The notes beneath the pieces were generated by a model that was not told the DNA's origin, searched no databases, and saw only the letters and a list, made by a program, of their open reading frames with translations. From a virus (taxonomy: Duplodnaviria > Caudoviricetes), in IMG/VR virus record IMGVR_UViG_2713897221_000004, positions 1-64,000 of that record: DNA of 64,000 bases. The stretch is one strand, 5' to 3'. This document shows positions 17,802 to 61,560 of this stretch, one piece after another (position 1 is the stretch's first letter; each line of letters begins with the position of its first letter). The translations under genes and the position numbers were made by a program.

Positions 17802-17803
17802 GC

Positions 17804-38038: not shown

Positions 38039-38817
38039 TGCGCCGCCCTCCCCGCTTCCAATTCCTGGGCCTGCTGAACCAGCATCGCCCGGCGATCCGC
38101 CAACTCGTTGGCTGCTTCAATCCGCATTTCGTCCTTCCTTTTGGCTGATGCCGCTCGCATTTCCAGCATCGAGTTCCTCACGGCCTCGAGCTTTGCCCGC
38201 AGCTTTGGCGATGGCCTGGCCACCTCACCGGTGAGCAGTGCTACGACGGCCCGGCCGTCCTCGGTAACTGGCATGACGCTCAGATCGGCCAGGTACAACC
38301 GTCCGCGCTCCTGCGGGATACGCTGCATCTCCACGGCCTTGGTGACCGCCTGGATGCGGCGATTGGCGTCGAAGCCCACCGAGACGTGCCAGTTGACCGG
38401 CTTGGCGTCTTCCCGGGCCTGGCCGACGAACCGCTCGTAGGCGCTGATGAACGCCATGCGCGCCCCCACCTTGTCGCCGGCGTCGAGAACAGGCTTTGCA
38501 GCGGCCAGGGCCAGCTGAATCTCGTCGGTCAGCACCACGGTTTCGAACTCGTCACTGGTGGTCATGGCGATGGCCCAGGCCTCATCCTTGCCAGGGCGCC
38601 CATCAGCCGATTGGGCTTGCTTCAGGATCGATGCAACTGTGAGTCGACCACCTTCGATCCGGCAGCTACGAAGTGCCGCGGTAAGCACCGGCTCGGCGTA
38701 TTCGCGCAGGTCCTCGACCATCAGTAGTGCCGCAGCCTGGGTGAGCTGCTGCCCCATCACCTCGGCAGTGGCAAAAAGGGACAGGAGCAATTGGTCTTGC
38801 TGCGCGTCATTCAGCAT
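38035..38817 (-). CDS. Replication protein (helicase loader-like, gpP position)
   Basis: GRPGKDEAWA motif; follows the initiator gene. Confidence 0.65.
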   Translation of the reverse strand: MLNDAQQDQLLLSLFATAEVMGQQLTQAAALLMVEDLREYAEPVLTAALRSCRIEGGRLTVASILKQAQSADGRPGKDEAWAIAMTTSDEFETVVLTDEIQLALAAAKPVLDAGDKVGARMAFISAYERFVGQAREDAKPVNWHVSVGFDANRRIQAVTKAVEMQRIPQERGRLYLADLSVMPVTEDGRAVVALLTGEVARPSPKLRAKLEAVRNSMLEMRAASAKRKDEMRIEAANELADRRAMLVQQAQELEAGRAAQ

Positions 38818-39772
38818 GGGTTGCGACCCTCTTGGCTCGAAGCGCTTCAAGGGCCTGCTCGGCAGCGCTGAAGTTGGTTTGGGTGTGCTCGATCTGTCGA
38901 GCCGTGGTCCCGTTCATCTGGCGATTGGTGACCCACTGGGTGTGGTAGCTCTCGGCGTTGACCAGCAGCTCGTTGAGGCTGTGGCACTTGCGCACGACAC
39001 CGGCATCACTGTTCTTCAGGAAGTGAGCGGCTACGTGGTGGGCGACATCAGCCCCGAGGCGGTCGACAAGTTGGCCAAGCTGGCCACCGACCTTTGCGTT
39101 CCATACCGGCCAAGCGCTGTAGCGCTTGCGGTAGGCCATGGCGTAGTTCGCCCAGACCTTGAAGGTTTTGCAGGACTGATCTTTCGGCCCTGGCATGTCG
39201 GCCGGGATTTCAACCCGCGGCGCTTCGAGTCGATCCAGAGCCACCAAGCCACCGGACGGCGCCGGCTTGTCCGGGCCGCTCTGAAAATCCTGACTGGTAC
39301 CCTGATTGGTATCCTGATGATTGGTATCCTGATTTGTCGGATTTTTTTCCGACCCTTGCTCGGATTTTCTTCCGACCTTGCTCGGAGATTTTTCCGAGGT
39401 AGATCGGATTTTTTTCCGACCTTTGTTTTCTGGTGGGGTCGGATATTTTTCCGACCCGTCGAGCTTCTGATTCCACTCGATCGCCTTCTCGGTGAGCCGG
39501 AAAAGCGTGATGTTGGAAGTGCTGGAAAGCTCGATTAAACCGGCCTCATCCAGGGCTTTCAGCATGCGATAGGCAGTGTCTGGCTTGTCGGTTAGAAGCG
39601 GCAGCTCCTCGACGATCTTGGCCTTGCTCAGCGTGAAGAAGATCCCGTCGTCGGTCTTTACCGGCTTGGTCCAGCTCGGGCAGCCGTAGATGAAGGCGAA
39701 CAGCAGGGCCTGTTGAGAGTTCAGCCCCCACTCGAGCGCCTTCACCTGGTTGATCGTGATGGTGAATTGCAT
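38807..39772 (-). CDS. Replication initiator (gpO-like)
   Basis: N-terminal winged-helix-like region and an internal iteron array. Confidence 0.85.
   Translation of the reverse strand: MQFTITINQVKALEWGLNSQQALLFAFIYGCPSWTKPVKTDDGIFFTLSKAKIVEELPLLTDKPDTAYRMLKALDEAGLIELSSTSNITLFRLTEKAIEWNQKLDGSEKYPTPPENKGRKKIRSTSEKSPSKVGRKSEQGSEKNPTNQDTNHQDTNQGTSQDFQSGPDKPAPSGGLVALDRLEAPRVEIPADMPGPKDQSCKTFKVWANYAMAYRKRYSAWPVWNAKVGGQLGQLVDRLGADVAHHVAAHFLKNSDAGVVRKCHSLNELLVNAESYHTQWVTNRQMNGTTARQIEHTQTNFSAAEQALEALRAKRVATHAE
39289..39455. repeat. Replication origin iterons
   Basis: Five TCGGA-N6-TCCGA palindromes at 39337, 39360, 39382, 39404 and 39439, preceded by CCTGA(T/C)TGGTA repeats. Confidence 0.85.
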
Positions 39773-39773
39773 T

Positions 39774-40580
39774 TCAGGCCTTCCCGACCAGTGCGGCCAG
39801 CTCGAGGAAACGGTCCACGTACCAGTGAGGCTGGGTTTCGCGTGGGGATTGCGGGCTGGTGAGGTTCTTGCCGTAGGCCATGCCCTTTTCAGTCACTGAC
39901 CAGAAGTCGACCATCACGCCTTTAGAGTTGCGGCGCTGGAGCTGCTTGAGGAGGCCGCGGGCCTGCAGTGCACGGTTGAACGCAGCCGGCGCGTAGCGGA
40001 TGCCGTGATCTTTCAGGAGAGCTGTTGCCGACTTGGTAGGCATCGATGAGCCACCTGTCGCGTCCGGCGCTGCATCGACGGCGTAACTTGGCAGAAACTT
40101 CGGGTCGAGCCCGTTGTTCTCGGCGATTTTGGTGAGCATCGCCATCTGGCAAGACGCGGCCGGCTTCAGCAGGCGCGTGAAGCACTCCATGATCGCAATC
40201 TCACCGACGACCTTGGTGCCATTGAGAAGGACCTGCTCCCGTGCGCCCTGCTGCTGTTCCAGCTCCCGCCACCGGCGGATCACCTTCATGCGCATCGGCG
40301 CGCTGTAACCAGTAAGCAGGCAATCGGTGTGTTCGCGATCGAGCTGGTACTGCACCTGCTCGCGATTGCGACCATCCAGGTAAATGTCCTCAAAGTTGAG
40401 GGCATCAGCCTTCAGTTCTTTCAGCATCGCCAGAATGTCGCGCTTCACGTTGTCGTGACGCTTGCCGGTGATGTTCGCGATCTCGCGGGAAGACATGGTG
40501 GTACGCGACACGTTTTCAGAACTGCAAAAACGTGTCGCGACATTTGTCTGGGTGTTGATTGAATCGGTGTGGGTATGCAT
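39774..40580 (-). CDS. Rha-family regulatory protein
   Basis: MSSREIA...KRHDNVKRDI and LLTGYS...R.KVIRRW motifs. Confidence 0.88.
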   Translation of the reverse strand: MHTHTDSINTQTNVATRFCSSENVSRTTMSSREIANITGKRHDNVKRDILAMLKELKADALNFEDIYLDGRNREQVQYQLDREHTDCLLTGYSAPMRMKVIRRWRELEQQQGAREQVLLNGTKVVGEIAIMECFTRLLKPAASCQMAMLTKIAENNGLDPKFLPSYAVDAAPDATGGSSMPTKSATALLKDHGIRYAPAAFNRALQARGLLKQLQRRNSKGVMVDFWSVTEKGMAYGKNLTSPQSPRETQPHWYVDRFLELAALVGKA

Positions 40581-40671
40581 AATCGGCCCCAATCAGGTGG
40601 TATCGAATCAGCCGGGGCGCAATCCCGGCTTTTTTGTGTCCGGAATTCGGCAGAGGCCCTCTGGATTACCC

Positions 40672-41417: not shown

Positions 41418-42275
41418 ATGAAAACCACTGAACGAATCACCAAGCTGGTAATGGCCCGAAAGCCAGCCATTGGCGTGCGCAACGTTAAGCGCGATATCGC
41501 AACCACGTGCGGCATCAGCTATGAGGCTGTGCGCCAGTGGTTTGCCGGCGATACCGAGAACATTAAGAACGAGAACCTGGTGGCGATCTCTGAGGGCTAC
41601 GACACTACTGTCGATTGGCTGCTATCAGGCAAAGGTGAGCCACCAAGAAGAAAAGAATCGGCGACAGCAACTGGCGATTCGGCAGGCAACTCCAGCGCAG
41701 CTGACCTGGTCCAGAAGATGCTGGAAAAACACGGAAAAGGCTTGCCTGAAGAAGCTCGCCAGAAGATCGTTGACGCTGTCGCAGATGGGGCAGCAAATGG
41801 CCAAGCTGGAAACGTAATCTCTGCCGACTTTTCCGGGCGCCGCCTGCAACCTGGTGATATTTCTATCCCGCAATACGACATCCGCGGCGCCATGGGCCAT
41901 GGCCAGGTACCGGCTGAATACTCCGAAGCAATCAGGAACGTTGTTATCAGCGAGGATGTGCTGCGCGATAAAGGTATCCAGTACTCGACCGCGGCCAGTC
42001 TCGCGATGATTACCGGCTGGGGCCAGAGCATGGAGGGCACGATCAACGACAAGGACCCTGTCATCGTCGATCGAGGCATCAGTGAATTTGCAGGTGACGG
42101 CGTGTACGTCATCACCTGGCATGACCTGCTCTACATCAAGCGGCTCCAGGTGCATGACGCCGATCATTTCGAAATGATCTCGGACAACCCGAAGCACAAG
42201 GACCGAGTCGTCCCGATTGGCGATGTGATCATCCACGCCAAGGTGCTGCTGGTCTGGAATGCTCGGAAGCTTTGA
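41418..42275 (+). CDS. cI: CI-like repressor (HTH + S24 peptidase)
   Basis: SYEAVRQW HTH; GQSMEG and IKRL catalytic Ser/Lys motifs. Confidence 0.93.
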   Translation: MKTTERITKLVMARKPAIGVRNVKRDIATTCGISYEAVRQWFAGDTENIKNENLVAISEGYDTTVDWLLSGKGEPPRRKESATATGDSAGNSSAADLVQKMLEKHGKGLPEEARQKIVDAVADGAANGQAGNVISADFSGRRLQPGDISIPQYDIRGAMGHGQVPAEYSEAIRNVVISEDVLRDKGIQYSTAASLAMITGWGQSMEGTINDKDPVIVDRGISEFAGDGVYVITWHDLLYIKRLQVHDADHFEMISDNPKHKDRVVPIGDVIIHAKVLLVWNARKL

Positions 42276-46359: not shown

Positions 46360-46494
46360 ATGTTCTCTCTCTTCATCTTCTTCCGCTTCATGCTTCGAGA
46401 CAGCAAGCCAGCCGCTTTCAAGCCGATGTACGTGCAGACCTGGCCTGATGAAGTGCCGGGCTACCCAGCGTCTGATTTTGTTAAGAACCTGTAA
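46360..46494 (+). CDS. Hypothetical 44-aa protein
   Basis: Same RBS leader as the 45827 gene; MFSLFIFFRFMLRDSK... Confidence 0.5.
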   Translation: MFSLFIFFRFMLRDSKPAAFKPMYVQTWPDEVPGYPASDFVKNL

Positions 46495-46522
46495 TCCGAT
46501 CCTCATTCAATAGGACTTCCCG

Positions 46523-47002
46523 ATGAACGCACAACAGCAACTCACCCCGCCGGCCATCGGCGAAGTTTGGCCAGGCCAAGGCGGTATCTATGGCGGCCTT
46601 CGCCAGTATCCCGAAGGTATGTGTCATGTGATCTTCGCCACTGAAGACGTTGGTCGCCACGCTTACGGCGATTACGGCATATCGACTGAAGCCACCAGCC
46701 GCACCGACGGCCGCGCCAACACGGCAATCCTGATCGCTCGCACTGGCAAGCACCCTGCGGCCATCGCTGCAGCTGCTTACACAGCCGATGGTCACGCCGA
46801 CTTCTACCTGCCGGCGATTGGCGAGCTGCACCACGGCTGGCAGTACGCTCCTGAGTCGTTCAGTGAAGAGTGGTACTACCTGTCGAGTTCGCAGTACTCA
46901 GCCTACGGCGCCTACCTCATGGGCTTCGAAGATGGCTGGCTCCACGGCGACGACAAGACCAACGAGCGCGTGGTGCGCCCTGTCCGCAGATTCCTTCAGT
47001 AA
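46523..47002 (+). CDS. DGR target protein 1 (remote; DUF1566/CLec-like)
   Basis: C-terminal VR; PAIGEVWPGQGG, GHADFYLP, YLSSSQ and VRPVRR motifs. Confidence 0.92.
   Translation: MNAQQQLTPPAIGEVWPGQGGIYGGLRQYPEGMCHVIFATEDVGRHAYGDYGISTEATSRTDGRANTAILIARTGKHPAAIAAAAYTADGHADFYLPAIGELHHGWQYAPESFSEEWYYLSSSQYSAYGAYLMGFEDGWLHGDDKTNERVVRPVRRFLQ
46890..46990 (+). repeat. DGR variable repeat VR1
   Basis: 101-nt ungapped match to the TR with 11 mismatches, all at TR adenines. Confidence 0.97.
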
Positions 47003-47019
47003 TTCATTCCTTCAATTTC

Positions 47020-47371
47020 CCTGACAGCCGGAAAGACGGCCCGATCACCTCGAAAGAGGCTGCATCGGAGTGTGAACTTGGACCTGATGAACTCCTGTCG
47101 GCTCACAGAACGAGCGAAGCAGGTTAGACAGAGTGGCGATGAGCTCCCGTTCAATGTCGTCAAGTTCACACCCCGATGCGGATGAATGCCCAAGCTGATG
47201 GGCAAGTGTAAGACCTGAGGGATCGCGGGAATCGTGGCCGGTAGAGTGAGTAAGCGCCCAGATGGCCACGGCGAGTCCAAGAATAAGCGGCTGAAACCTT
47301 CGCCCCGGTGAAACTCCGGTGTCACTAAGGCCGCTAATAGTCATGCCGGGATCAGCTCCGGTCATCTGCAT
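47020..47371 (+). ncRNA. Putative structured RNA region
   Basis: 19-bp inverted repeat 47062-47080/47161-47179, 11-bp stem 47175-47185/47361-47371 and several inner hairpins; no convincing ORF. Confidence 0.5.
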
Positions 47372-47393
47372 CAACACCCAACCGGAGAACACT

Positions 47394-47537
47394 ATGCTCC
47401 TGATCATCCTGATCGGCGCAGCGCTGAGTCATGTGCGGCCAGAACCGCCTACCTCTGCCAGCCTGCCGACCGATCCACCAGCCAAGATTCGCGAAAAGCC
47501 TCGACTGACAACCGGGGTCGCAGCGTTCTGGCGCTGA
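47394..47537 (+). CDS. Hypothetical 47-aa protein
   Basis: GGAG RBS then MLLIILIGAALSH. Confidence 0.5.
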   Translation: MLLIILIGAALSHVRPEPPTSASLPTDPPAKIREKPRLTTGVAAFWR

Positions 47538-47738
47538 CTGATCCCGCCAAAAACAACAAACTCATAGAGCTACACCATCAAGCTGCATCTGTAGCTGTAC
47601 CGAAAGCCCCGAACGTCCAACGGGGCTTTCGTCTCTCCACCGAACCCAACAGAAAGCACTCCCTCCGCGCCCAACGGCAAAAGGCGGTGTGCGAGTGCTT
47701 TCGATTGGATTTGAACCATCACCCGACAAGGAATCCTC

Positions 47739-48305
47739 ATGAAAACTTTTACCCCCGAACAACTCTCCGAAATCCTCGGTAAACACAAGTTGTGGCTGGA
47801 CGATGGAGAGGGTGGCGAGCGCGCCGACCTGCGCGGTGCCAACCTGGGCGATGCCGACCTGCGCGGTGCCAACCTGCGCGGTGCCAACCTGCGCGGTGCC
47901 AACCTGGGCGATGCCAACCTGGGCGATGCCGACCTGCGCGGTGCCAACCTGCGCGGTGCCAACCTGCGCGGTGCCAACCTGGGCGATGCCGACCTGCGCG
48001 GTGCCTACCTGGGCGAAGTCAGAAACCTGAATGGCGCTACCGGCAACCGCAGGGAGATCAAGGCTATTCAATGCGACCTCTGGCCGGTCACGTACACCGC
48101 GGAACGCATGCAGATCGGTTGCCAGTTCCACGCGCTGGCCGAATGGTGGGCATTCACCGATGAGGAAATCGCCGACATGGATAGCCAAGCGCTGGCTTGG
48201 TGGAAGGTCTGGAAGCCGCTCCTGCAACAGATCATCGAGACGTCGCCGGCAGAGCCAGGCGGCGAGCCGAAACAAGAACCTGCCGAGCCCGAAAATGCCG
48301 CATAA
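47739..48305 (+). CDS. Pentapeptide repeat protein
   Basis: Tandem A(D/N)L(R/G)(G/D) repeats encoded by 15-nt units at ~47823-48015. Confidence 0.9.
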
Positions 48306-48312
48306 GCGTCAT

Positions 48313-48376
48313 GCGAGCGAGTCGTGGGGCCTGATCAGCCAGACCTGACGCTTGCCGGGAAGCGCCGGCCGCTCGC
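48313..48376 (+). ncRNA. Structured RNA motif, copy A
   Basis: GCGAGCG/CGCTCGC closing stem around CCAGACC..GCCGGGAAGCGCCGGC; paralogous to 53679-53747. Confidence 0.55.
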
Positions 48377-48396
48377 GCCTTTCATTGGAGATCGTC

Positions 48397-48510
48397 ATGA
48401 AACGCAAGCCATCAAAACCCCGCCTCAACGTCCACGACTGCGCCAAAGGCCGTATGCATGACGCACCGCGGAAAGTCGTTACCACTATGCCGGGCGGGTA
48501 TATCGCCTGA
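48397..48510 (+). CDS. Hypothetical 37-aa protein
   Basis: GGAG RBS then MKRKPSKPRLNVHDCAKG. Confidence 0.5.
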   Translation: MKRKPSKPRLNVHDCAKGRMHDAPRKVVTTMPGGYIA

Positions 48511-48534
48511 CCTGCACCGCCGATGGAGGCGACC

Positions 48535-48822
48535 ATGGACTACGAAGTGATTGTTGAAGGGTTCGTCCTCCAGGTGGAGGTGACCCATTGCGTGAACATT
48601 CCGCCAAGCCCGGGCAGCTGGAACAGCGACTGGGATGCCCAGGGCGAGCGCGAGCTGGAGTTCAAGCTGAACTCTGCCATCTGCTACGACGATGATGGCA
48701 TCCGCATGGATGTTGGTCTTTCGGCCTTACCAGTGCTGGCGTACCAGTACGTCCGCCAGATCGAAACAGCGCTGTGGATTGAGATCGACGCCAAGCGGCG
48801 CCGGGGGCGGTGGGCAGCATGA
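48535..48822 (+). CDS. Hypothetical protein
   Basis: GGAGG RBS then MDYEVIVEG. Confidence 0.7.
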   Translation: MDYEVIVEGFVLQVEVTHCVNIPPSPGSWNSDWDAQGERELEFKLNSAICYDDDGIRMDVGLSALPVLAYQYVRQIETALWIEIDAKRRRGRWAA

Positions 48823-49037
48823 CGCCGCATGAAATCGCAGTTCACCGTATCGAAACGGAAATCAAGCAGATCCCAACCTCGCTACTGCCAATCAATGCAG
48901 CTGAGCGGGCATGTATGGCCGCCTTCCTTTCCGAGGAGCTATCGGCCATCACCACGAAAGAGCGCGATGAGTTCTTGAAGCTGATTCGCGCCGCTGAAAT
49001 GGTCCGTTATCTGGAGCTGCTCAAGGGGGCCGCATGA
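48819..49037 (+). CDS. Hypothetical protein
   Basis: ATGA-coupled to the upstream gene. Confidence 0.65.
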   Translation: MTPHEIAVHRIETEIKQIPTSLLPINAAERACMAAFLSEELSAITTKERDEFLKLIRAAEMVRYLELLKGAA

Positions 49038-49427
49038 ATACCATGACCTTAGCTTTCACCCACAAGTCCTGGCTAGGCGCTCTGTCGCTGGCCTACGACG
49101 CCGGCATCGAAAATGTCCACGCCTGGAGCCGCCGGGCCTGTCTGTGTGGTGAGTGGACTGTCGCTTATGAGGTGAAGGCATGACCCTACGCGAGTTCATC
49201 AATGTTGCCGCCTGGCTTCTGTTCTGCGGCGCCGGGATCTGGGGGTTTTCTCAGGCCATCGAGCATCGCTCTGAAATTCCACAGATTCCGCATTGCACTG
49301 GGGTGGTTAAGTGAGATCTCTCCAGCAGGCTAGGAGGCTCGCCTACTGGCGTGGCTCTGCAATCACCCTCCTCCTCTGCACCTTCTTGATGTTGCTCGGC
49401 GCCCTCGCCGATCGCGTCACTCAGTAA
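49034..49427 (+). CDS. Three coupled small ORFs (49034-49183, 49180-49314, 49311-49427)
   Basis: Overlapping start/stop codons; the last two have hydrophobic segments. Confidence 0.5.
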
Positions 49428-49471
49428 TCAACTCCTTCAAGCGCTGCGCACGTCGCGGCCAAGGATTCCCC

Positions 49472-50575
49472 GTGTCCGCACAACAGCAAGTCATCAAGAT
49501 CGACGACATTAGCGAAGAAAACGCACCGGCCATCTATGTCGCCGGCGGCCTTGGCCAGTTCTTCGACGCGGTAGCCGCTGAGGTCACCGCCGAGGTTCCA
49601 GACCTGACCACTCGCAAAGGCCGCGAGCGCATCGCCTCTCTGGCGGCAAAGGTCAGCAAGTCGAAGACGGCCGTTGAAAAGCCGGGTCGCGACTACCTCA
49701 AGCGCCTGAAGGAAATGCCCAAGGTAGTGGAGGCCGAGCTGCGCGAGTTCGTCAACAAGATGGACGCCCTTCGCGATGCCACCCGCCAGCCTCTGACGGA
49801 CTGGGAGCAAAAAGAACTGGCCAGGACCGACAAGCACATCGACGGCATCCAGAGCATCAAGGACATGGCCAGCTTCGACGAGCCACCGACAGCCGCCCAT
49901 GTCGCCCAGGTCATCGCCGACCTGGAACTGCTGGCTCTCGACGACTCCTGGGAGGAGTTCTTGCCCGAGGCGGCCCAAGCCAAGAATCAAGCGCTGATCA
50001 CGCTGCGCGGCCTGCACGCCGAGCGAGCCCGGCATGAGGCAGAGCAGGCTGAGTTGGCGCGCCTCCGCGAGGAGAAGGAAATGCGCGACAAGAAAGATCG
50101 TGAGGACCAGATCGCTCGGGAAGCCGCTGAGCGCGCTACGCAAGAAGCAGAAGAAAAGGCCCAGCGCGCTCGAGATGCAGAAGCTCAGCGCGTTCGCGAT
50201 GAGCAGGAGGCTGCCGAGAAGCGCGAGAGCGACCTTAAGCTTCAGACGGCAGAAGCTGAGCGCCGCGCTGAACAGGCAAAGCGCGAGCAGGTTGAGGCCG
50301 AACAGAGGGCTGAGCGCGAGCGACTGGAAGGCATCGAACGGCAAGCCGCTGCGGTGGAGCAGGCGCGACTGGATGAGGTCAAGCGCCAGAACGACGCCGC
50401 CGCCGAGATCCTGCGCCAGCAGGAAGCCCGCGAGGCCGATACGGCACACAGAGCCAAGATCAACCGCGCCGCCCTGGCAGCCTTCGTGGCTGGCGGCATG
50501 ACCGAGGAATGCGCCAAGCAGGCAATCACGCTGATCGCCAAGCGCCAGATCCCGAACGTTTCGATTGCCTATTGA
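49472..50575 (+). CDS. Coiled-coil early protein
   Basis: E/A/R-rich helical protein preceding the recombination genes. Confidence 0.8.
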   Translation: MSAQQQVIKIDDISEENAPAIYVAGGLGQFFDAVAAEVTAEVPDLTTRKGRERIASLAAKVSKSKTAVEKPGRDYLKRLKEMPKVVEAELREFVNKMDALRDATRQPLTDWEQKELARTDKHIDGIQSIKDMASFDEPPTAAHVAQVIADLELLALDDSWEEFLPEAAQAKNQALITLRGLHAERARHEAEQAELARLREEKEMRDKKDREDQIAREAAERATQEAEEKAQRARDAEAQRVRDEQEAAEKRESDLKLQTAEAERRAEQAKREQVEAEQRAERERLEGIERQAAAVEQARLDEVKRQNDAAAEILRQQEAREADTAHRAKINRAALAAFVAGGMTEECAKQAITLIAKRQIPNVSIAY

Positions 50576-50582
50576 GGTCGCC

Positions 50583-51392
50583 ATGAGCAATACAGCACTT
50601 GCCGAGAAATCTGACGCTCGGCAGATCGCCTCCCCGGCGATCACCAGCGAGTCAACCGCAATGCTGACCATGATTCAGCGTGCCGCCACTGACCCCGCCT
50701 TCGACGCGGACAAGATGCAGAAGATGATGGAGATGTACGAACGGCACACCGATCGTACTGCTGCAGCAGCATTCAACGCGGCGATGGTTAGAGCTCAGGC
50801 CGAGATCGGCCCCGTATTCCGCGACAAGTTCAACGCACAGACGAACAGCGCTTATGCCGCGCTTGAATCGATTGACCGGAAAATATCGCCGGTCTACACG
50901 GCTTACGGCTTCTCACTGTCATTCGGCACTGGAGACAGTCCGCTGGCCGGCCACATCCGCACGGTATGCGACTGCATGCATGAGGCTGGCCACACGAAGC
51001 AGTACCACGTCGATCTTCCGATTGACTCGGCCGGCATCAAGGGCAGCGTGAACAAGACAGGCGTTCACGCCAGCGGCTCGACATACAGCTACGCCCGGCG
51101 CTATCTGACGATGATGATCTTCAATGTCGTCCTGACCAATGAGGATAACGACGGGAATGGAGATCAAACACAGGGTCTTGGCGAGCTCCTAAACGAGTGG
51201 ATACCAAAGGCCTACGCCGCCGAGTCGAAAGAGGCTCTGACGGCTATCTGGCAAGCAGGCGTCCAGGCCTCCCAGGACCTGAAAGCTACCGACAAAAAAA
51301 CGGCAACCGACCTCTATGAAGCATTGAAGGTTGCGGTCACCACTCGCGGGCAGCAGCTTAGCGCCCCCGCTCAAGAAGGAGCCGACCAATGA
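50583..51392 (+). CDS. ERF-family ssDNA annealing protein
   Basis: YAALESI and GSTYSYARRY motifs. Confidence 0.88.
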   Translation: MSNTALAEKSDARQIASPAITSESTAMLTMIQRAATDPAFDADKMQKMMEMYERHTDRTAAAAFNAAMVRAQAEIGPVFRDKFNAQTNSAYAALESIDRKISPVYTAYGFSLSFGTGDSPLAGHIRTVCDCMHEAGHTKQYHVDLPIDSAGIKGSVNKTGVHASGSTYSYARRYLTMMIFNVVLTNEDNDGNGDQTQGLGELLNEWIPKAYAAESKEALTAIWQAGVQASQDLKATDKKTATDLYEALKVAVTTRGQQLSAPAQEGADQ

Positions 51393-52033
51393 TCATCGTT
51401 CACTGCTCTCAAGGATCAGACGCCTGGCATCAGGAAAGAGCCGGCGTCATCACAGCAAGCATGTTCAGCGACGCCCGCGCCCGGCTGAAGTCAGGCCCCA
51501 ACAAGGGCGAGCCGACCGCCAAGGCCTTGGACTATGCCTTCCGTCTGGCCGTTGAGCGTATCAGCGGCTCCCCGCTGGATGGTGGATTCGAAACCTGGCA
51601 GATGAAGCGTGGCCACGAACTGGAGCCCGAGGCCCGCATGGAGCACGAAATCCAGACAGGGCTGATCGTCACTCAGGTTGGATTGGTTAAAACCGATGAT
51701 GGCGTGTTCGGCGCCAGTGCCGACGGCTTCATTGGCGAGGATGGCGGGTCTGAGTACAAATGCTTCTTGGCGCCGGAAAAGCTGCGATCCTTCCACATCG
51801 ACAATGACGCCAGCGACATCATGGACCAAGTGCAAGGCTGTATGTGGATCACCGGCCGCAAGTGGTGGCATATCGGGATGTACTGCCCAGACCTTAAGCC
51901 AGTCGGCCGCCAGCTCTGGTGGCAGGAGTTTAAGCGCGACGAGGACTACATCGAAAAGCTCGAGGAAGACCTGTGGCAGTTCAAGCTGCTGGTCGATCAG
52001 TACGAGGCCAAGCTGAGGAGTAAGGCAGCATGA
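51389..52033 (+). CDS. YqaJ/lambda-exonuclease family protein
   Basis: QGS..W...R.G.ITAS, GHELEP, ASADG, EYKC and QVQG motifs. Confidence 0.92.
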   Translation: MIIVHCSQGSDAWHQERAGVITASMFSDARARLKSGPNKGEPTAKALDYAFRLAVERISGSPLDGGFETWQMKRGHELEPEARMEHEIQTGLIVTQVGLVKTDDGVFGASADGFIGEDGGSEYKCFLAPEKLRSFHIDNDASDIMDQVQGCMWITGRKWWHIGMYCPDLKPVGRQLWWQEFKRDEDYIEKLEEDLWQFKLLVDQYEAKLRSKAA

Positions 52034-52272
52034 TCAGCAACCACCTCAACCTGGTGGAGCGGCAGCGGCAAAGCGCCGAGGAGATATCGGCACAAGTCGC
52101 CCAGTTCCTGGCGGCCGGCGGCCAGATCGCCCAACTGAAAAGCCCACCGCGAAATCCCTTGCCGCCTCCCCGCTCAACCCGAATAGACCCTGAAACGGTC
52201 CTCAAGCGAAAGCCACGGCCGCTGACCCTGGCCGAGCGCCGCGCCCTTCGAAAAATGGCGGACTCACTATGA
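52030..52272 (+). CDS. Hypothetical protein
   Basis: AQFLAAGGQI motif; coupled. Confidence 0.7.
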   Translation: MISNHLNLVERQRQSAEEISAQVAQFLAAGGQIAQLKSPPRNPLPPPRSTRIDPETVLKRKPRPLTLAERRALRKMADSL

Positions 52273-52739
52273 GCAAGCGCAAGCCTCACAACCTCAAGGC
52301 CAGGATCGAACGATCCTGCCGGGCCCTGCTCAGCACCAACCACGTCGCAGTGGTGAACATCGACCCGAGCGGTCGCCAGGGCATGATCAATTACAAGTCG
52401 CTGAAGAACATCGCGCCGGGGAAGATCGGCCAGGCCGTCTGCGGCATTCCACACCGGTGGACGATCTACCTCAGCGCTCTATGTATCGATGCCCGCGGCG
52501 ACCGCTACAGCAAGTCGATTGAGGTGGCTCCGGAAGGCGTCTACCTCTCCGACCACCTGGAGGACGTGATCGAGCATTGCTACAAGGAGCTGCGCGAATC
52601 AGCCAATCAAAGCCAGATGCTGGCCTCGGGATGGATCGCCATTCCCGAGGCGATGTCGCTCGACGAGGATCATGCAGCGCGGATCTTCGAAGCGGTCGGG
52701 GCCTGGCATCAGGTAAAGGTCGATTCATGCGCCGCATAG
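52269..52739 (+). CDS. Hypothetical protein
   Basis: 156-aa coupled ORF. Confidence 0.7.
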   Translation: MSKRKPHNLKARIERSCRALLSTNHVAVVNIDPSGRQGMINYKSLKNIAPGKIGQAVCGIPHRWTIYLSALCIDARGDRYSKSIEVAPEGVYLSDHLEDVIEHCYKELRESANQSQMLASGWIAIPEAMSLDEDHAARIFEAVGAWHQVKVDSCAA

Positions 52740-52808
52740 CCCGCACCCAACAACGTAAACGACAGACCTGGCTGGCACTGCCGGCCAGCGGAATCGAAGA
52801 GGTAGGCC

Positions 52809-53120
52809 ATGGCCAAGAGCAATGCGGAACGCTCAGCAAAGACCGCGGCGAAGCGAAAGAGCCGCGGCGAAGAGGAATTGCGACTCCATACACTGGCCGG
52901 AACCCGCCAGGCCCTGGCCGACCTGATGGACTGGAACGGTATTGAGGAGCAGGGCGAGGCCATGACTCTGATGATTCACCATCTGCACGGCCTGGGCCCT
53001 GCTGGATCAGCTCAGTTCCTTTCAGCTCCGCGACACGAAATCACGATAAGCGAAAACGTGTCGCGCAAATTGCAACTCGCCTACAACCGCGAATCCCTTC
53101 GCATCTGTCACGACGAATAA
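52809..53120 (+). CDS. Hypothetical protein (possible DNA-binding)
   Basis: MAKSNAERSAK...EELRL. Confidence 0.7.
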   Translation: MAKSNAERSAKTAAKRKSRGEEELRLHTLAGTRQALADLMDWNGIEEQGEAMTLMIHHLHGLGPAGSAQFLSAPRHEITISENVSRKLQLAYNRESLRICHDE

Positions 53121-53178
53121 CCCCTACCCCACGCTGCGCATCCGGTCCCGGAGGGCGGCGCACACCTGGAGAAACACC

Positions 53179-53655
53179 ATGACCCAAGTTGCACAGCAAT
53201 TCATCGCCGCCGCGGATCTCCCAGAACGCGGCCAACCTCTCGCCGGCGGCACCTTCTTCACCCGCTACTGGCTCAACGGCGAGGAGCGCGCCCTTGTACT
53301 GCTCGGCGACGAACTCAGCGGCGAGTGGGGCGAATATGGCCTCGACGTTCCTGGCGCCAAGAGCTACAGCGACGGCGAGGCAAACACCCGGGCGATGGCC
53401 GAGGCCGGCAGCAAGATCGCTATCAAGGCCCTGGAACTGGGTGCGCATATCCCTTCCTGCCTGGAGGGCCAGCTGGTTATGGCGGCCAAGGCCGATGGTC
53501 TGGTGACGCTACGCGAGGATCGCTTCCACTGGCTGAGCACGCAGTACTCAGCCCACTGCGCCTACGGCATGGGCTTCGGAGGTGGCTGGCTCGGCTACGG
53601 CGGCAAGGACGACGAGCGCGTGGTGCGCCCTGTCCGCAGCCTTCCAATTCGGTAA
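53179..53655 (+). CDS. DGR target protein 2
   Basis: C-terminal VR; HWLSTQ...VRPVR. Confidence 0.92.
   Translation: MTQVAQQFIAAADLPERGQPLAGGTFFTRYWLNGEERALVLLGDELSGEWGEYGLDVPGAKSYSDGEANTRAMAEAGSKIAIKALELGAHIPSCLEGQLVMAAKADGLVTLREDRFHWLSTQYSAHCAYGMGFGGGWLGYGGKDDERVVRPVRSLPIR
53540..53640 (+). repeat. DGR variable repeat VR2
   Basis: 101 nt with 17 mismatches to the TR, all at TR adenines. Confidence 0.97.
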
Positions 53656-53678
53656 TTCATTCCTTCATTCCTTTTCTT

Positions 53679-53747
53679 GCAGGCGATTCCGGGAGCGTCA
53701 GGACGACGCCCAGACCAGAAGCAAGCCGGGAAGCGCCGGCCGCCTGC
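53679..53747 (+). ncRNA. Structured RNA motif, copy B
   Basis: GCAGGCG/CGCCTGC closing stem with the same internal core as 48313-48376. Confidence 0.55.
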
Positions 53748-53774
53748 ACCCTATTTCGCTCACAGGAGCATCCC

Positions 53775-54362
53775 ATGCAAATGATCACCGTAAGTCACGG
53801 CGAGACCATGCTGACCACTCCGGACGCTGCCCTTGCACTGCAGGTGCTGACCGGGCTGAGCGCTTCCGCAAAGCCGGCCGCGGCACCATCTGGCATCCCA
53901 GCAATCGGCGAATACTGGCCGGGTGAAGGCGGCGTCAACGGCGGCCTGTTCCAGGGCGGCGACCGCCCCTATTACCTGATCGTACCGACGGGCGAAGATG
54001 TCGAAGCCGACCTTGAGTGGGGCGGCTACGGCCAAGAACTCGACGGCGCCAAATCCCCATGGGATGGCCAGGCCAACACCGCTTATCTGGCAAGCAGCAA
54101 CCGAGAGCACGACCACCCTGCCGCCCAGTTCTGCGCCAACTTCGAACGTGATGGACACAAGGACTTCTACCTCATGGCCAGGCGTGAGGCGACCCATCTC
54201 GAAATCACAGTGCCGCACCTGTTCAGCAAGCCTTGGCACTGGACCAGTACGCAGTGCTCAGCCTACGGCGCCTACGACATGGACTTCGAAGATGGCTGGC
54301 TCGACGACGGCGGCAAGGGCAACGAGCGCGTGGTGCGCCCTGTCCGCAGAAAGCTTATTTGA
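53775..54362 (+). CDS. DGR target protein 3 (DUF1566/CLec-like)
   Basis: AGGAG RBS then MQMITVSHG; PAIGEYWPGEGG, GHKDFYL and HWTSTQ...VRPVRR motifs. Confidence 0.92.
   Translation: MQMITVSHGETMLTTPDAALALQVLTGLSASAKPAAAPSGIPAIGEYWPGEGGVNGGLFQGGDRPYYLIVPTGEDVEADLEWGGYGQELDGAKSPWDGQANTAYLASSNREHDHPAAQFCANFERDGHKDFYLMARREATHLEITVPHLFSKPWHWTSTQCSAYGAYDMDFEDGWLDDGGKGNERVVRPVRRKLI
54250..54350 (+). repeat. DGR variable repeat VR3
   Basis: 101 nt with 12 mismatches to the TR, all at TR adenines. Confidence 0.97.
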
Positions 54363-54382
54363 TCCTTCAATGCTTCATTCCT

Positions 54383-54398
54383 GGGCGCCTCGGCGCCC
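54383..54398 (+). promoter_or_regulatory. GC hairpin downstream of VR3 (possible homing cruciform)
   Basis: GGGCGC-CTCG-GCGCCC. Confidence 0.55.
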
Positions 54399-54417
54399 TC
54401 GCTTTTAGGAGGCCAGG

Positions 54418-54771
54418 ATGGCCCTGCATACACAGTTAGAGATCCATAAGGTGGCCGAAGAGTTGTTCGGCATGGCACTCAGCTTGGTTCGCCATATTCC
54501 GCGCGACCTGAAACAGGTTGCCGGCGGCAAGATTCGGGATGTGTGTCTTGAGGTTCTGGTGCTGATCGGTAGAGCGAATATGGCTCGAGACAAGCGCCCG
54601 TATCTCACCGAGGTCATCGAAAACATCTGGATGCTCAACTACCTGTTCAGGGCGTTATCCGAAAACGGCGCCATCAGCCGCGGCCAACATGCCAAAGCGA
54701 TGAAGCTCACGGCCTCCGTAGGCCGACAGGCGAACGCCTGGAAGAAATCCGCAACCGCGCCCGCTGCTTGA
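54418..54771 (+). CDS. avd: Accessory variability determinant (four-helix bundle)
   Basis: 117 aa, basic and helical, IPRD.K...G and VGRQANAWKK motifs; sits between target and TR. Confidence 0.9.
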   Translation: MALHTQLEIHKVAEELFGMALSLVRHIPRDLKQVAGGKIRDVCLEVLVLIGRANMARDKRPYLTEVIENIWMLNYLFRALSENGAISRGQHAKAMKLTASVGRQANAWKKSATAPAA

Positions 54772-54941
54772 GGGTTACGGCTCTCCTGCCTGTGCGCTGA
54801 ATCTGGTCGTGCCGCTGGCCCTTGGGCCACCGCCATGCGCATCAGAGATACCGCCGATCTAAAGCGTTCGGGCTGGTCTCGCGCAGTTTCTCTGCTGATC
54901 GGCATCGCCTTCGGCAGAGCGACGTAGATAGCACGACAGGT

Positions 54942-55042
54942 CGCAGTACTCAGCCAACAACGCCTACAACATGGACTTCGAAGATGGCTGGCTCAACAAC
55001 AACGACAAGAACAACGAGCGCGTGGTGCGCCCTGTCCGCAGA
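54942..55042 (+). ncRNA. DGR template repeat (TR)
   Basis: 31 adenines including 8 AAC codons in the target frame; parent of VR1-VR3. Confidence 0.97.
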
Positions 55043-56141
55043 ATCAAGTGTTGCTCCCTTCCAGTTCGAGGATCTCGTCCAGGCCTACTACGATTGCCGC
55101 CGGCGCAAGCGGAACACCGCAAGCGCCAGGCGATACGAGCAGGACATGGAGATCAACCTGCTGGAGCTTTACGACGACCTGATAGCCGGCACTTACCGGC
55201 CAGGCCGGTCTATCTGTTTCGTCGTGACTCGGCCAAAGGCTCGCGAGGTGTGGGCCGCGGACTTCCGCGACCGGATCGTGCATCACCTGCTGTACAACCA
55301 CATCGGCCCCGCTATCGAGCGCAGCTTCATAGCGGACAGCTGCGCTTGTATCCCCGGTCGCGGCACGCTGTACGCCGCAAAGCGCCTTGAGTCGAAGATA
55401 AGGAGCGCCAGCCAGAACTGGTCGAAGCCGGTCTACTACCTGAAATGCGACCTGGCCAACTTCTTCGTGGCGATCAACAAGCCGGTGCTGCTCGAGCAAC
55501 TGGCCGCCAGGATCACCGAACCCTGGTGGCTGACACTGGCCGAGCAAATCCTGATGCACGATCCGCGGGAGAACTACGAGGTCCGCAGCCCGGCGCACCT
55601 GTTCAACCGGGTGCCGCAGCACAAACGCCTCACTGCGCAGCCTGCACACCTTGGCCTGCCAATCGGCAACCTGTCGTCGCAGTTCTTCGCGAACGTGTAC
55701 CTCGACGCGCTGGACCAGTTCGCGAAGCACACGCTCAATGCGCGCCATTACATCCGCTACGTCGACGACTTCGTATTCCTGCACGAATCGCCGCAGCATT
55801 TGAACGAGTGGTTGGCCCGGGTGGAGGCGTTCCTGCCGAAGCTCGGCGCCAGGCTCAACCCCAGCAAGACCATCCTGCAACCGGTCGACCGCGGCGTCGA
55901 CTTCGTCGGGCATGTCATCAAGCCATGGCGTCGAACAACCCGCAAACGATCTGTGGCCCAGGCGCTGAAGCGAACCGCCGCGGCGCCGGCCGAGGATCTG
56001 CGCGAGACAGCAAACAGCTACTTCGGCCTTCTTGGCCAAGCCAGCCATAGCCAGAAGGACCGGGAGAAGCTGGCCCGGGTCGTCTTGAAGCGTGGTCACG
56101 TCGTCAACGGCGACCTGACCAAGACCTACCCAAAGAAATAA
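54984..56141 (+). CDS. DGR reverse transcriptase
   Basis: FRDRIVHH, DGR-type PIGNLSSQ and YVDD motifs; no maturase or endonuclease tail. Start uncertain; ATG 54984 lies within the TR. Confidence 0.95.
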   Translation: MAGSTTTTRTTSAWCALSAESSVAPFQFEDLVQAYYDCRRRKRNTASARRYEQDMEINLLELYDDLIAGTYRPGRSICFVVTRPKAREVWAADFRDRIVHHLLYNHIGPAIERSFIADSCACIPGRGTLYAAKRLESKIRSASQNWSKPVYYLKCDLANFFVAINKPVLLEQLAARITEPWWLTLAEQILMHDPRENYEVRSPAHLFNRVPQHKRLTAQPAHLGLPIGNLSSQFFANVYLDALDQFAKHTLNARHYIRYVDDFVFLHESPQHLNEWLARVEAFLPKLGARLNPSKTILQPVDRGVDFVGHVIKPWRRTTRKRSVAQALKRTAAAPAEDLRETANSYFGLLGQASHSQKDREKLARVVLKRGHVVNGDLTKTYPKK

Positions 56142-56198
56142 TCCCACTTCAACGAATCACGCCAGTCGGCGAGGCCGGCGCACGCCTGGAGGCCAACA

Positions 56199-56408
56199 AT
56201 GTCTACCCCCCCCCCCATCCGCATCAAGCGGATTGATCTATCGCGCCCTCGCATTCGCCGGCGCGTTCTGCGAGCCCTAAAAAGGAGCTACCAGCTCACC
56301 GGCGGACCGATCAGCAGGGCCTGGCTGTGCACACCTGGAACCCTGACGTTCAGGCTCGGCAACTGGCACGGGCACTACAACGCCAAGAATGAATGGGTGC
56401 CGATATGA
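56199..56408 (+). CDS. Hypothetical basic protein (C11 tract near start)
   Basis: GGAGG RBS. Confidence 0.6.
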   Translation: MSTPPPIRIKRIDLSRPRIRRRVLRALKRSYQLTGGPISRAWLCTPGTLTFRLGNWHGHYNAKNEWVPI

Positions 56409-56637: not shown

Positions 56638-57561
56638 ATGACAACAGCAATCGACCTGTTCGCCGGCCTCGGCGGATGGAGCACAGGCGCACGCGCCGCA
56701 GGCGTCCAAGTTCTCTGGGCGGCAAATCACTGGCCGGCCGCCGTGGAATGGCATAGCGCAAACCACCCTGACACCCAGCACGTTTGCCAGGACTTGCATC
56801 AGGCTCGCTGGGACCAAGTACCAGCTCATGACCTGCTTCTGGCGTCGCCATGCTGCCAGGGGCACAGCCCTGCGCGCGGGAAGGCCAATGGGAACCCACA
56901 GCATGACTCGTCGAGATCTACAGCCTGGGCCGTTGTCTCAGCCTTGGAGTTTCACAGGCCGCAATTCAGCCTCGTTGAAAACGTACCCGAGTTTACGAAC
57001 TGGGCGCTGTATCCGGCTTGGGTGCAGGCCGTCCAGGCCCTGGGCTATCAGGTCGCGCCGCATGTCGTTGATTGCGCTGATCTGGGTGTGCCGCAACACC
57101 GCATCCGTCTGTTCCTGGTGCTCACGCGCAGCCAGGCGCCGCTGATGCTCGAGCTGCACAAGCGACAGCATGTCTCTGCCGCAAGCTTCCTCGACTTCGA
57201 CGCCGGTCGCTGGTCGCTGATCGAGAAGCCGGGGCGGGCTCAGGCAACCCTTGACCGGGTGCGAAACGGCCGCCAGCGCTTCGGCGACCGGTTCATCATG
57301 CCCTACTACGGCAAAGGCTCAGGAACCACCGGCCGCGACATCAAACGACCGATTGGCACCATCACTACCTTGGACCGCTGGGCGCTGGTCGACGGCGGCC
57401 GCATGCGGATGCTCAGCGCTAACGAGGCCCTGGCCGCGCAGTCGTTCCCGGCTGACACCCTACGCCCGGACAACCACCGACTGACCATGCACATGGCTGG
57501 AAATGCAGTGCCGCCCCTGGCGGGGCAGCGAGTTATAGAGGCCTTGTTGAAAGCGGCTTAA
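56638..57561 (+). CDS. DNA cytosine-5 methyltransferase
   Basis: DLFAGLGG, SPCCQ, ENV, Q.R.R and GNAVPP motifs. Confidence 0.93.
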   Translation: MTTAIDLFAGLGGWSTGARAAGVQVLWAANHWPAAVEWHSANHPDTQHVCQDLHQARWDQVPAHDLLLASPCCQGHSPARGKANGNPQHDSSRSTAWAVVSALEFHRPQFSLVENVPEFTNWALYPAWVQAVQALGYQVAPHVVDCADLGVPQHRIRLFLVLTRSQAPLMLELHKRQHVSAASFLDFDAGRWSLIEKPGRAQATLDRVRNGRQRFGDRFIMPYYGKGSGTTGRDIKRPIGTITTLDRWALVDGGRMRMLSANEALAAQSFPADTLRPDNHRLTMHMAGNAVPPLAGQRVIEALLKAA

Positions 57562-60534: not shown

Positions 60535-61560
60535 ATGGGACGTAGACCGACAAAGCCCGGGAGCATATCCCGGCTAAGGGAAAGGAAGCGCGGCAAGCTG
60601 GTGTACTTCACATATGACCTTGGAGGCAAGCCACGCAAAGAGATCTACCTGGGAAAGGACTACGGCGTTGCGATCATGGAGTACGCGCGCCTGGAGCGCG
60701 ACCGTACCGCGACTGCAGCCGCAGCGAAGGTCATCACCTTCCGCTACGTCGCCGAGAAATACCTTGTAGAGGTTGTTCCGACCAAGGGTTCAAACACCCA
60801 GAAGGACAATCTCAGGGAAATGAAGAACCTACTTGCCTTCTTCGATGATCCTCCTGGGCCGCTCGACAACATCGAGCCCATACACATCAGGCAGTATTTG
60901 ACCTGGCGATCCTCGGCGCCAGTTCGTGCCAACCGAGAAAAAGCCCTCCTCAGTGCCATTTGGAACTACGCGCGCGACAAAGGCTACACGGCTCTGGCAA
61001 ACCCCTGTTCTGGAATCAAGGGGAACAAGGAGACAGGTCGAGACACCTACGTTGAGGACGAGCTTCTTAAGCGAGTGTACGACAAGGCAGATGTAGGCCT
61101 GCAGGATGCTTTGGACTTGTTTTATCTGACTGGCCAGCGCATCGCCGACACTCTAAAAATGGACGAGCGAGATATCCGCGAAGGCCGTCTCTCTGTTCAG
61201 CAAGGGAAGACAAAAGCTAAACGACGCATCGAGATCACGGGAGAGTTGAAAGTAGTTCTTGATCGAATCCTGGCGAGAAAGGCTTCCCACAAGGTCCGCT
61301 CGACGCGGCTGATCGTTTTGGAAGATGGCACGCCGATGACGACGGCAATGTTGCGGAGAAGGTTTGACCTGGCCAGAGAAGCCGCTGGAGTGGCCAAGCC
61401 TGAATTCCAGATGAGGGATCTGCGGGCCAAGGCTGGCACAGACAAAGAGGAGTCAAGCGATATCGTCCAGGCCCGCGACCAGCTCGGCCACACAACGGTT
61501 GTCATGACGGAGCATTACATCAGGAATCGAAGGGGGAAGAAGGTTTCGCCAACCAAGTGA
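60535..61560 (+). CDS. int: Tyrosine integrase
   Basis: TGQR, RDLRAK and LGH...MTEHY catalytic motifs. Confidence 0.95.
   Translation: MGRRPTKPGSISRLRERKRGKLVYFTYDLGGKPRKEIYLGKDYGVAIMEYARLERDRTATAAAAKVITFRYVAEKYLVEVVPTKGSNTQKDNLREMKNLLAFFDDPPGPLDNIEPIHIRQYLTWRSSAPVRANREKALLSAIWNYARDKGYTALANPCSGIKGNKETGRDTYVEDELLKRVYDKADVGLQDALDLFYLTGQRIADTLKMDERDIREGRLSVQQGKTKAKRRIEITGELKVVLDRILARKASHKVRSTRLIVLEDGTPMTTAMLRRRFDLAREAAGVAKPEFQMRDLRAKAGTDKEESSDIVQARDQLGHTTVVMTEHYIRNRRGKKVSPTK

Follow-up and report, generated by a model that had tools for sequence, protein, structure and literature searches.

We analysed a 64,000-nucleotide (nt) stretch of DNA, hereafter called the window, which corresponds to the first 64 kb of the 100,003-bp IMG/VR provirus record IMGVR_UViG_2713897221_000004 and is similar in DNA and protein to Pseudomonas phages. 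The window carries a diversity-generating retroelement (DGR), and our main subject is a gene that appears to be rewritten by this element from a distance of 8 kb. Target 1 (46523..47002, plus strand; ATG at 46523, TAA at 47000-47002) encodes a stand-alone, DUF1566/Lcl_C-like (C-type-lectin-like) protein of 159 aa and was identified as a non-adjacent DGR target. Its 3' end is a 100-nt variable repeat (VR1, 46890..46989, plus strand), which covers approximately the last 33 codons.

The DGR cassette (53179-56141) lies downstream in the same orientation, and all its parts are on the plus strand. It begins with target 2 (53179..53655, 158 aa, VR2 at 53540-53639) and target 3 (53775..54362, 195 aa, VR3 at 54250-54349). 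The PHROG family phrog_4245 matches targets 1, 2 and 3 at E 1.1e-29, 8.5e-23 and 7.1e-29, respectively. All three are small stand-alone proteins of the C-type-lectin-like (DUF1566/Lcl_C) type, in which the VR makes up roughly the final 33 codons. The accessory protein Avd follows (54418..54771; Pfam bAvd PF22296, E 1.5e-13, 51.6 bits against a cut-off of 40); with the NCBIfam model DivGenRetAVD it scored 45.5 bits, under the cut-off of 80. Between avd and the template repeat (TR) is an RT-15 RNA motif (Rfam RF03018, 54755..54943), which was matched over its full length (1-192) at 179.5 bits against a gathering threshold of 82 (E 2.3e-44); it abuts the 5' end of the TR and overlaps its first bases. 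A brief literature search returned no paper linking RT-15 to DGRs. The TR core was placed at 54942..55041 because this is the A-rich copy of the repeat (30 A, 8 AAC codons) and because it overlaps the start of the reverse transcriptase (RT) open reading frame (ORF), lying just upstream of it. The RT (54984..56141, 385 aa) matches RVT_1 at E 3.5e-18 and contains IGNLSSQ and YVDD; the motif (I/L/V)GxxxSQ is a mark of DGR RTs. Its start was set at ATG 54984, inside the TR, because this ATG is in frame and agrees with the annotated start in phage Cruim01; the length given above therefore presumes this start. The RT is 33-37% identical to those of Bacteroides, Vibrio and Faecalibacterium phages. 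The cassette is a standard DGR with two adjacent targets, Avd, RT-15 RNA, TR and RT, all of them intact, and it has the features by which a DGR is recognized, namely an RT beside a TR, an Avd, and TR/VR differences at TR adenines.

Four in-register copies of the repeat were found in the window (46877-47022, 53527-53672, 54237-54382 and 54929-55074), and the homology of all four begins at the same point. Over the 100-nt core (46890-46989 versus 54942-55041), VR1 differs from the TR at 11 positions, all of which are TR adenines, and 0 of the 70 non-A positions are changed. The probability that all 11 substitutions would land on the 30 A sites by chance is 3.9e-7. The same holds for the other two copies, as 16/16 mismatches in VR2 and 12/12 in VR3 fall on TR adenines and no non-A core position is changed in either. 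A single G>T difference between VR1 and the TR falls outside the core, 2 nt on its upstream side and at the margin of the homologous stretch. The distance from VR1 to the TR is 8,052 nt, start to start. A first-pass annotation of this DNA had described a distant target approximately 8 kb upstream of the TR, separated from the cassette by unrelated genes including the recombination module and differing from the TR at adenine sites only; each of these points was confirmed. The genes in between encode a pentapeptide-repeat protein (47739-48305), an Erf-like annealing protein (50565-51392) and an exonuclease (51389-52033), all on the plus strand. The annotation also supposed that there may be more targets elsewhere. 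When the TR was searched with BLAST against the whole 100,003-bp record, only the four known copies were returned; that is, this part of the claim did not hold for the record, whereas four related genomes, described below, do have a further VR copy 2.4-2.6 Mb away or on another contig.

Targets 1 and 3 have the motifs PAIGE.WPG.GG and DGH.DFYL in common, as the annotation had also observed (in the form GH.DFYL), and are otherwise diverged: the target 1 protein is 51% identical to target 3 and 34% identical to target 2. The AlphaFold2 model of target 1, made from an alignment of 32 sequences, has a predicted local distance difference test (pLDDT) score of 94.1. Its best match in the PDB is the C-terminal domain of Legionella Lcl (8q4e_A, E 1.3e-5), followed by C-type lectins, and the Atlas cluster of target 1 is named 'putative DUF1566 domain-containing protein'. 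Because of this fold match and this cluster name, we regard target 1 as a distant relative of Lcl_C (DUF1566). The NCBIfam library gave no match naming the targets. Target 1 is thus a small stand-alone protein, lectin-like and of the DUF1566 type, with the VR at the C-terminus of a predicted C-type-lectin-type fold, as is usual for a DGR target. The 730 nt or so on the 3' side of target 1 (47003-47738) contain no convincing plus-strand ORF, and the first part of this stretch is conserved in the related loci L005 and L006.

Distant variable repeats and their flanks

IMG/VR was scanned with target 1, which yielded 40 loci. In the closer RT clade, 16 loci have a full RT and an in-register TR; nine of these, together with the window, form a set in which the VR lies 3.3-8.5 kb from the TR. 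A second RT clade (L032-L044, RT approximately 61% identical) was excluded from all tallies because the fixed 100-nt frame overran the end of the TR homology. In eight of the ten loci with a distant VR (more than 3 kb), the VR has 0 non-A mismatches to its cognate TR, and the best non-cognate TR type has 1 to 6. With any other TR type in the panel, the VR1 of the window has 6 or more non-A mismatches. A second set (at least 120 stretches among the matches listed) came from a pattern scan of genomes that represent their species; in the Pseudomonas assemblies of this set, at least 10 VRs lie on the same contig as their TR at 2.7-8.1 kb; the number of non-A mismatches was 0 in seven, 1 in two and 2 in one. 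TR types differ among themselves at 4-15 non-A positions, which means that a distant VR and its own TR undergo concerted evolution. The comparison of relatives thus supports the proposal that the distant VR is held to the TR sequence by retrohoming.

Close relatives were also found to vary at the adenine sites. The annotation had named an invariant VR1 among relatives as an argument against its proposal; instead, loci L007 and L008, with target 1 scaffolds identical at 332/340 positions (97.6%), differ at 10 positions of VR1, all of which are TR-A sites. The L007 group makes up 15 pairs, of which 10 have no non-A difference in VR1 and 5 have a single one. In relatives, target 1 can be directly beside the cassette (e.g., L013 and L026) or as much as 8.5 kb from it, indicating that insertions of a mosaic nature account for the distance within the early operon.

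The last 26 nt of the VRs are GC-rich and identical to the TR, and divergence begins right after them. Behind VR1 is an AT-rich element (46990..47020, plus strand), which consists of the stop codon plus TAATTCATTCCTTCA / TCCTTCAAT; the corresponding AT-rich flanks lie at 53640-53672 behind VR2 and at 54350-54375 behind VR3. In both its GC-rich end and its AT-rich flank, VR1 is like VR2 and VR3. The sequence TCCTTCAWT occurs four times in the window, three of them 10-30 nt past VR1, VR2 and VR3, and in shuffled sequence it occurs 0.79 times on average, with 0/100 shuffles reaching four. In distinct family sequences (loci L005-L165, among the matches listed), TTCA[AT]T is present within 45 nt downstream of 123/145 VRs versus 1/46 TRs. 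In the same 145 VRs and 46 TRs, the first 30 nt downstream are 70% AT behind VRs versus 46% behind TRs, the window overall being 42% AT; part of this contrast is expected, as the VR flanks are intergenic and the TR flanks are RT coding sequence. The TTCAWT element is kept across non-homologous downstream contexts, which suggests a function. Some DGRs have an identical initiation of mutagenic homology (IMH) and IMH*, so that recognition must reach downstream, and an inverted repeat is present in only 34% of DGRs, according to the sections of Wu 2018 (PMC5758913) consulted here. We consider the element a candidate determinant of the recipient site in a family whose VRs and TRs have one and the same GC-rich, IMH-like end. 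Behind VR1, a GC-rich hairpin or cruciform like that of Bordetella phage BPP-1 was considered and rejected, as the four flanks fold no better than shuffled sequences (z -0.82, +0.30, -1.42 and -1.40). A clear terminator-like hairpin (54383-54398) was found behind VR3 alone among the flanks.

Prophage context, relatives lacking the RT and far copies

The gene map of the window was derived from PHROG searches. The portal (29657-31033), the terminase large subunit (31036-32367), an O-like replication protein (38807-39772) and an anti-repressor-like protein (39774-40592) are encoded on the minus strand, and a CI-like repressor (41418-42275), a DNA methyltransferase (56638-57561) and an integrase (60535-61560) on the plus strand. 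From this gene content, the window is best described as holding a lambdoid-type prophage, and the DGR and its three targets all lie on the plus strand in the early operon between repressor and integrase, outside the tail genes. The pentapeptide-repeat gene contains 12 tandem units of 15 nt. At the DNA level, these repeats match pentapeptide genes of Salmonella and Edwardsiella phages with 87-91% identity, and the product has weak NCBIfam matches, including Qnr/MfpA-type families, all far under cut-off.

Relatives that lack the RT show what becomes of target 1 on its own. The RT was not found in any of the five records G001-G005 (L005, L012 and L014-L016), whereas two positive controls were found; three of the five have a completeness of 90% or more, and G001 is a whole phage genome with terminal repeats. 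In L011 and L019 only remnants of the RT persist, comprising its last 50 or 86 codons (17595-17744 and 17781-18038, respectively), and two or three targets remain; these two loci are natural deletion derivatives. The annotation had suggested that prophages without the RT would have a target 1 homolog with a drifting C-terminus. This was not borne out: target 1 persists in the relatives without the RT, and only 0-1 non-A mismatches separate its VR from the TR type of a relative. Therefore, a clean VR alone is no proof of a working RT in the same element. The complete phage G001 (L005) has two targets (10368 and 16239), and their VRs fit two different TR types with 1 non-A mismatch each; therefore, one DGR acting in cis cannot have written both.

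We also compared VR type with scaffold among the copies without an RT. L014 and L016 have scaffolds 88.8% alike, yet 12/72 non-A VR sites differ, while G011 and G016 have scaffolds 85% alike and differ at 0/72. The disagreement of VR type with the scaffold tree suggests either that DGRs act in trans between prophages or that VR ends are often exchanged.

Four genomes (G011, G022, G012 and G024) have a copy of the target far from the DGR. Each has exactly one TR among the matches listed, and a single RT was confirmed in G011 and G012. Compared with the resident TR, the far VR of G011, at 2.37 Mb from the DGR, has 0 non-A and 12 A-site mismatches, and that of G022, at 2.6 Mb, has 0 and 14. The far VRs of G012 and G024 are each on another contig and have 1 non-A mismatch, with 10 and 12 A-site mismatches, respectively. 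G011, which holds L119, is labelled as the chromosome of Pseudomonas sp. B22129, and G022, which holds L160, as that of Pseudomonas sp. MPB23; their far copies are at about 1,056,555 of G011:C1 (L177, L183 and L184) and about 525,700 of G022:C1 (L202-L204). In both, the far copy is inside a second prophage that lacks the RT and carries a CI-like repressor, DnaB/DnaC/O-like genes and an integrase of its own; the one in G022 has a terminase and a portal as well. The window's RT gave no tblastn match within 20 kb on either side of the far copy in G011. The gene order around the far copy is repressor, target 1, a partial target-2-like ORF, a NinI-like phosphatase and integrase. Among the matches listed, the TR records that fit the four far VRs at no more than 1 non-A mismatch make up 14%, 14%, 2% and 14% of 50 distinct TR records.

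These copies raise the possibility that DGRs of this family act in trans, with the DGR of one prophage rewriting the orphan target 1 of a second, RT-less prophage in the same cell, megabases away. The match of the far VRs to the resident TR is consistent with this, but on balance we lean somewhat against it. In G016 and G023, orphans of the commonest type are present and no TR was found, the most common types may merely circulate together, the four genomes are possibly not independent of one another, and recombination could move VR ends between phages.

Probable rewriting at a distance and its alternatives

With regard to the window itself, we consider it very probable, from the comparison of repeats and relatives, that a complete DGR rewrites three small lectin-like targets, one of which lies 8 kb upstream in the same orientation, across the pentapeptide-repeat gene and the Erf/exonuclease module. 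As in known DGRs, the TR-containing RNA would be reverse transcribed by the RT together with Avd, the adenines would be copied unfaithfully, and the cDNA would replace each VR. The recipient site would be marked by the GC-rich 3' end in common with the TR and by the AT-rich TTCAWT element behind the VRs. Since target 1 bears both marks, distance and intervening genes would be immaterial. As the early operon is under the control of the repressor, the DGR would work mainly during lytic growth or induction and not in the resting lysogen.

Public sequencing runs were used to look for current activity. At least half of the sampled words of 46400-56200 were present in 18 runs, 15 of which are possible sources of the record. 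Fifteen runs from six studies, under several organism labels, hold 0.99 of the sampled words, and a groundwater metagenome holds 0.91. The raw-read run contributed 7 reads only. Two runs were compared over the repeats; the lysogen lineage is widespread, and its VRs are stable in these two runs. Three contigs or pairs of contigs were considered as variants. A contig of the metagenome X18 has 9 differences in VR1, all at TR-A sites, and was rejected as a VR1 variant of the window prophage; it belongs to a relative, because its flanks differ too. The 233-nt contig L161 was likewise rejected as a within-culture variant, as it differs upstream of the VR as well and is another paralogue. The 281-nt contig L078 and the end of a 288-kb contig (L117) come from one assembly and are identical save for 7 VR positions, all of which are A in the window's TR. 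This difference could be a within-culture VR variant or could reflect collapsed tandem paralogues.

Several observations weigh against rewriting by the resident DGR. In addition to the clean VRs of the relatives without an RT, the contigs of the isolate run X3, which is perhaps not independent of the window, are identical to the window over VR1, VR2, VR3 and the TR, and so are those of X16, a groundwater metagenome from another study, with 0 other letters. None of the three VRs therefore shows signs of current diversification in this lysogen lineage, a weak indication, as contigs drop minor variants. Some distant VRs have decayed: among the ten loci with a distant VR, L006 has 2 non-A mismatches to its TR, and L017, the 3' end of which is truncated, has 7. 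No conserved GC-rich inverted repeat was found behind VR1, and its 131-nt flank folds no better than shuffled sequences (z -0.82). In addition, target 1 scored only 19.7 bits (E 0.0011) against Pfam PF07603 (Lcl_C), below the gathering cut-off of 34.9.

Invariance, decay elsewhere and the missing inverted repeat would all agree with VR1 being a relic, i.e., a gene end that the DGR once wrote but now no longer acts on, and that is slowly drifting. We regard this as unlikely. VR1 has not drifted at any of the 70 non-A positions although the target 1 protein is just 34-51% identical to the other targets, and it shares the GC-rich end and the AT-rich flank with VR2 and VR3. Orthologous distant VRs differ at adenine sites between prophages with scaffolds that are 97.6% identical. 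Moreover, VR2 and VR3 do not vary in these runs either, so invariance does not single out VR1. The invariance of all three would also fit a DGR in a repressed early operon that works only in lytic growth.

The far copies bear on a second alternative, in which VR1 was written mainly in trans by the DGR of another co-resident phage with the same TR type. The four related genomes provide a precedent of sorts, since an RT-less target copy lies far from the sole DGR with 0-1 non-A mismatches to its TR, in a second prophage in the two that were mapped. For the window, however, this appears very improbable, as its own TR fits VR1 perfectly at the non-A sites whereas other TR types in the panel have 6 or more mismatches, so that a source in cis is sufficient, and the 100,003-bp record contains no second TR. 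Ordinary homologous recombination or gene conversion, keeping the 3' ends of the three paralogues alike without reverse transcription, could draw on 100-nt repeats with conserved ends as substrates, on the mosaic nature of phage early regions and on the exchange of modules seen in the RT-less complete phage L005, but it is scarcely credible as the explanation, because it would not restrict all 39 differences of the three VRs to TR adenines or leave one copy uniquely A-rich with 8 AAC codons, and the adenine pattern recurs in 145 distinct family VRs (among the matches listed) beside an intact RT/Avd cassette.

Comparison with known retroelements and significance

Rewriting of target 1 by the resident DGR would place it in a class that is already in print. 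In the sections of Wu 2018 (PMC5758913) consulted here, 45/372 DGRs have non-adjacent targets, 73 in all; phage-associated DGRs have many of these, which with few exceptions lie within 50 kb and are probably part of the same prophage. A cut-off below 10 kb is called arbitrary there, and no remote (>100 kb) targets are expected for phage DGRs. Non-adjacent targets are defined in these sections as showing only A-to-N differences to the TR and as not being part of another DGR. The VR1 target agrees with this definition, since the record has a sole RT and TR with unrelated genes in between. At 8,052 nt it is not remote in the sense of >100 kb from the RT, so the label 'remote' given in the first-pass annotation should be replaced by 'non-adjacent'. 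Compared with the non-adjacent and remote targets of Treponema denticola and of Wu 2018, 8 kb is at the short end of their continuum, and the 8-kb target is therefore one more case of a known class. In contrast to the expectation for phage DGRs stated there, the copies in relatives lie 2.4-2.6 Mb away in a second prophage. Remote targets are also acknowledged by Roux 2021 (PMC8144416), where, in the part drawn on here, viral targets are mostly tail proteins.

The DGR of Bordetella phage BPP-1 (mtd, avd, TR and brt; PMC5758913), as far as it is described in that source, resembles the present one in being phage-borne, in having an RT, an Avd and a TR, and in being adenine-specific. In both, the VR is at the 3' end of a target with a C-type-lectin fold, and a GC-rich 3' segment is common to VR and TR. 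They differ in that BPP-1 has one adjacent tail-fibre target in the late region, whereas the window has three small lectin-like targets in the early operon, one of them 8 kb away. Behind the VR, BPP-1 has a GC-rich inverted repeat, where the window has the AT-rich TTCAWT with a GC-rich end identical in VR and TR, and the structured RT-15 RNA on the 5' side of the TR sets the window apart as well. The Legionella pneumophila DGR with LdtA (category 'd'/CLec2, DUF1566-type; PMC5758913) is alike in VR class and fold, and about half of the category-d targets treated in the same source are short proteins consisting of the DUF1566 domain alone. However, LdtA is described there as a surface lipoprotein of a cellular DGR, whereas the targets here are phage early genes; by eye, with no predictor run, no signal peptide or lipobox was seen in their N-termini.

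The closest known elements are in cultured Pseudomonas phages. The RT is 68-85% identical to those of Cruim01, SC_8_H2H8_2017, VB_PaD_phPA-G, Haboob and LPPA56, with the highest values (82-85%) for SC_8_H2H8_2017 and Cruim01 (84.7%). The temperate phage Cruim01 has the same order of two target-sized ORFs, an Avd-sized ORF, an RT-15 misc_RNA and the RT, located between repressor and integrase, and its cassette is likewise beside a recombination module and a methyltransferase. In GenBank, the RTs of these cultured phages are labelled 'retron-type' or plain reverse transcriptase and the targets hypothetical. In the open-access literature that was searched, no paper describing this Pseudomonas phage DGR family was found, and Table S1 of Wu 2018 may list such elements.

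The DGR family is widespread in Pseudomonas prophages and present in cultured phages. Its interest lies mainly in its regularities: the DGR is located in the early operon, the AT-rich flank is specific to VRs, and orphan targets found in second prophages fit the TR of the resident DGR. Targets lie anywhere between adjacent and 8.5 kb away, perhaps even megabases away, and form a natural series for testing what the recipient site requires in cis, and the TTCAWT element behind the VRs is a simple candidate for the cis determinant. As the DGR targets are in a phage early operon and not in the tail, hypervariation may serve something other than the switching of host receptors. If DGRs of this family do act in trans, polylysogens would share one diversification engine, and the diversified early, apparently non-structural lectin-like proteins may serve conflict between phages or between phage and host and not receptor binding.

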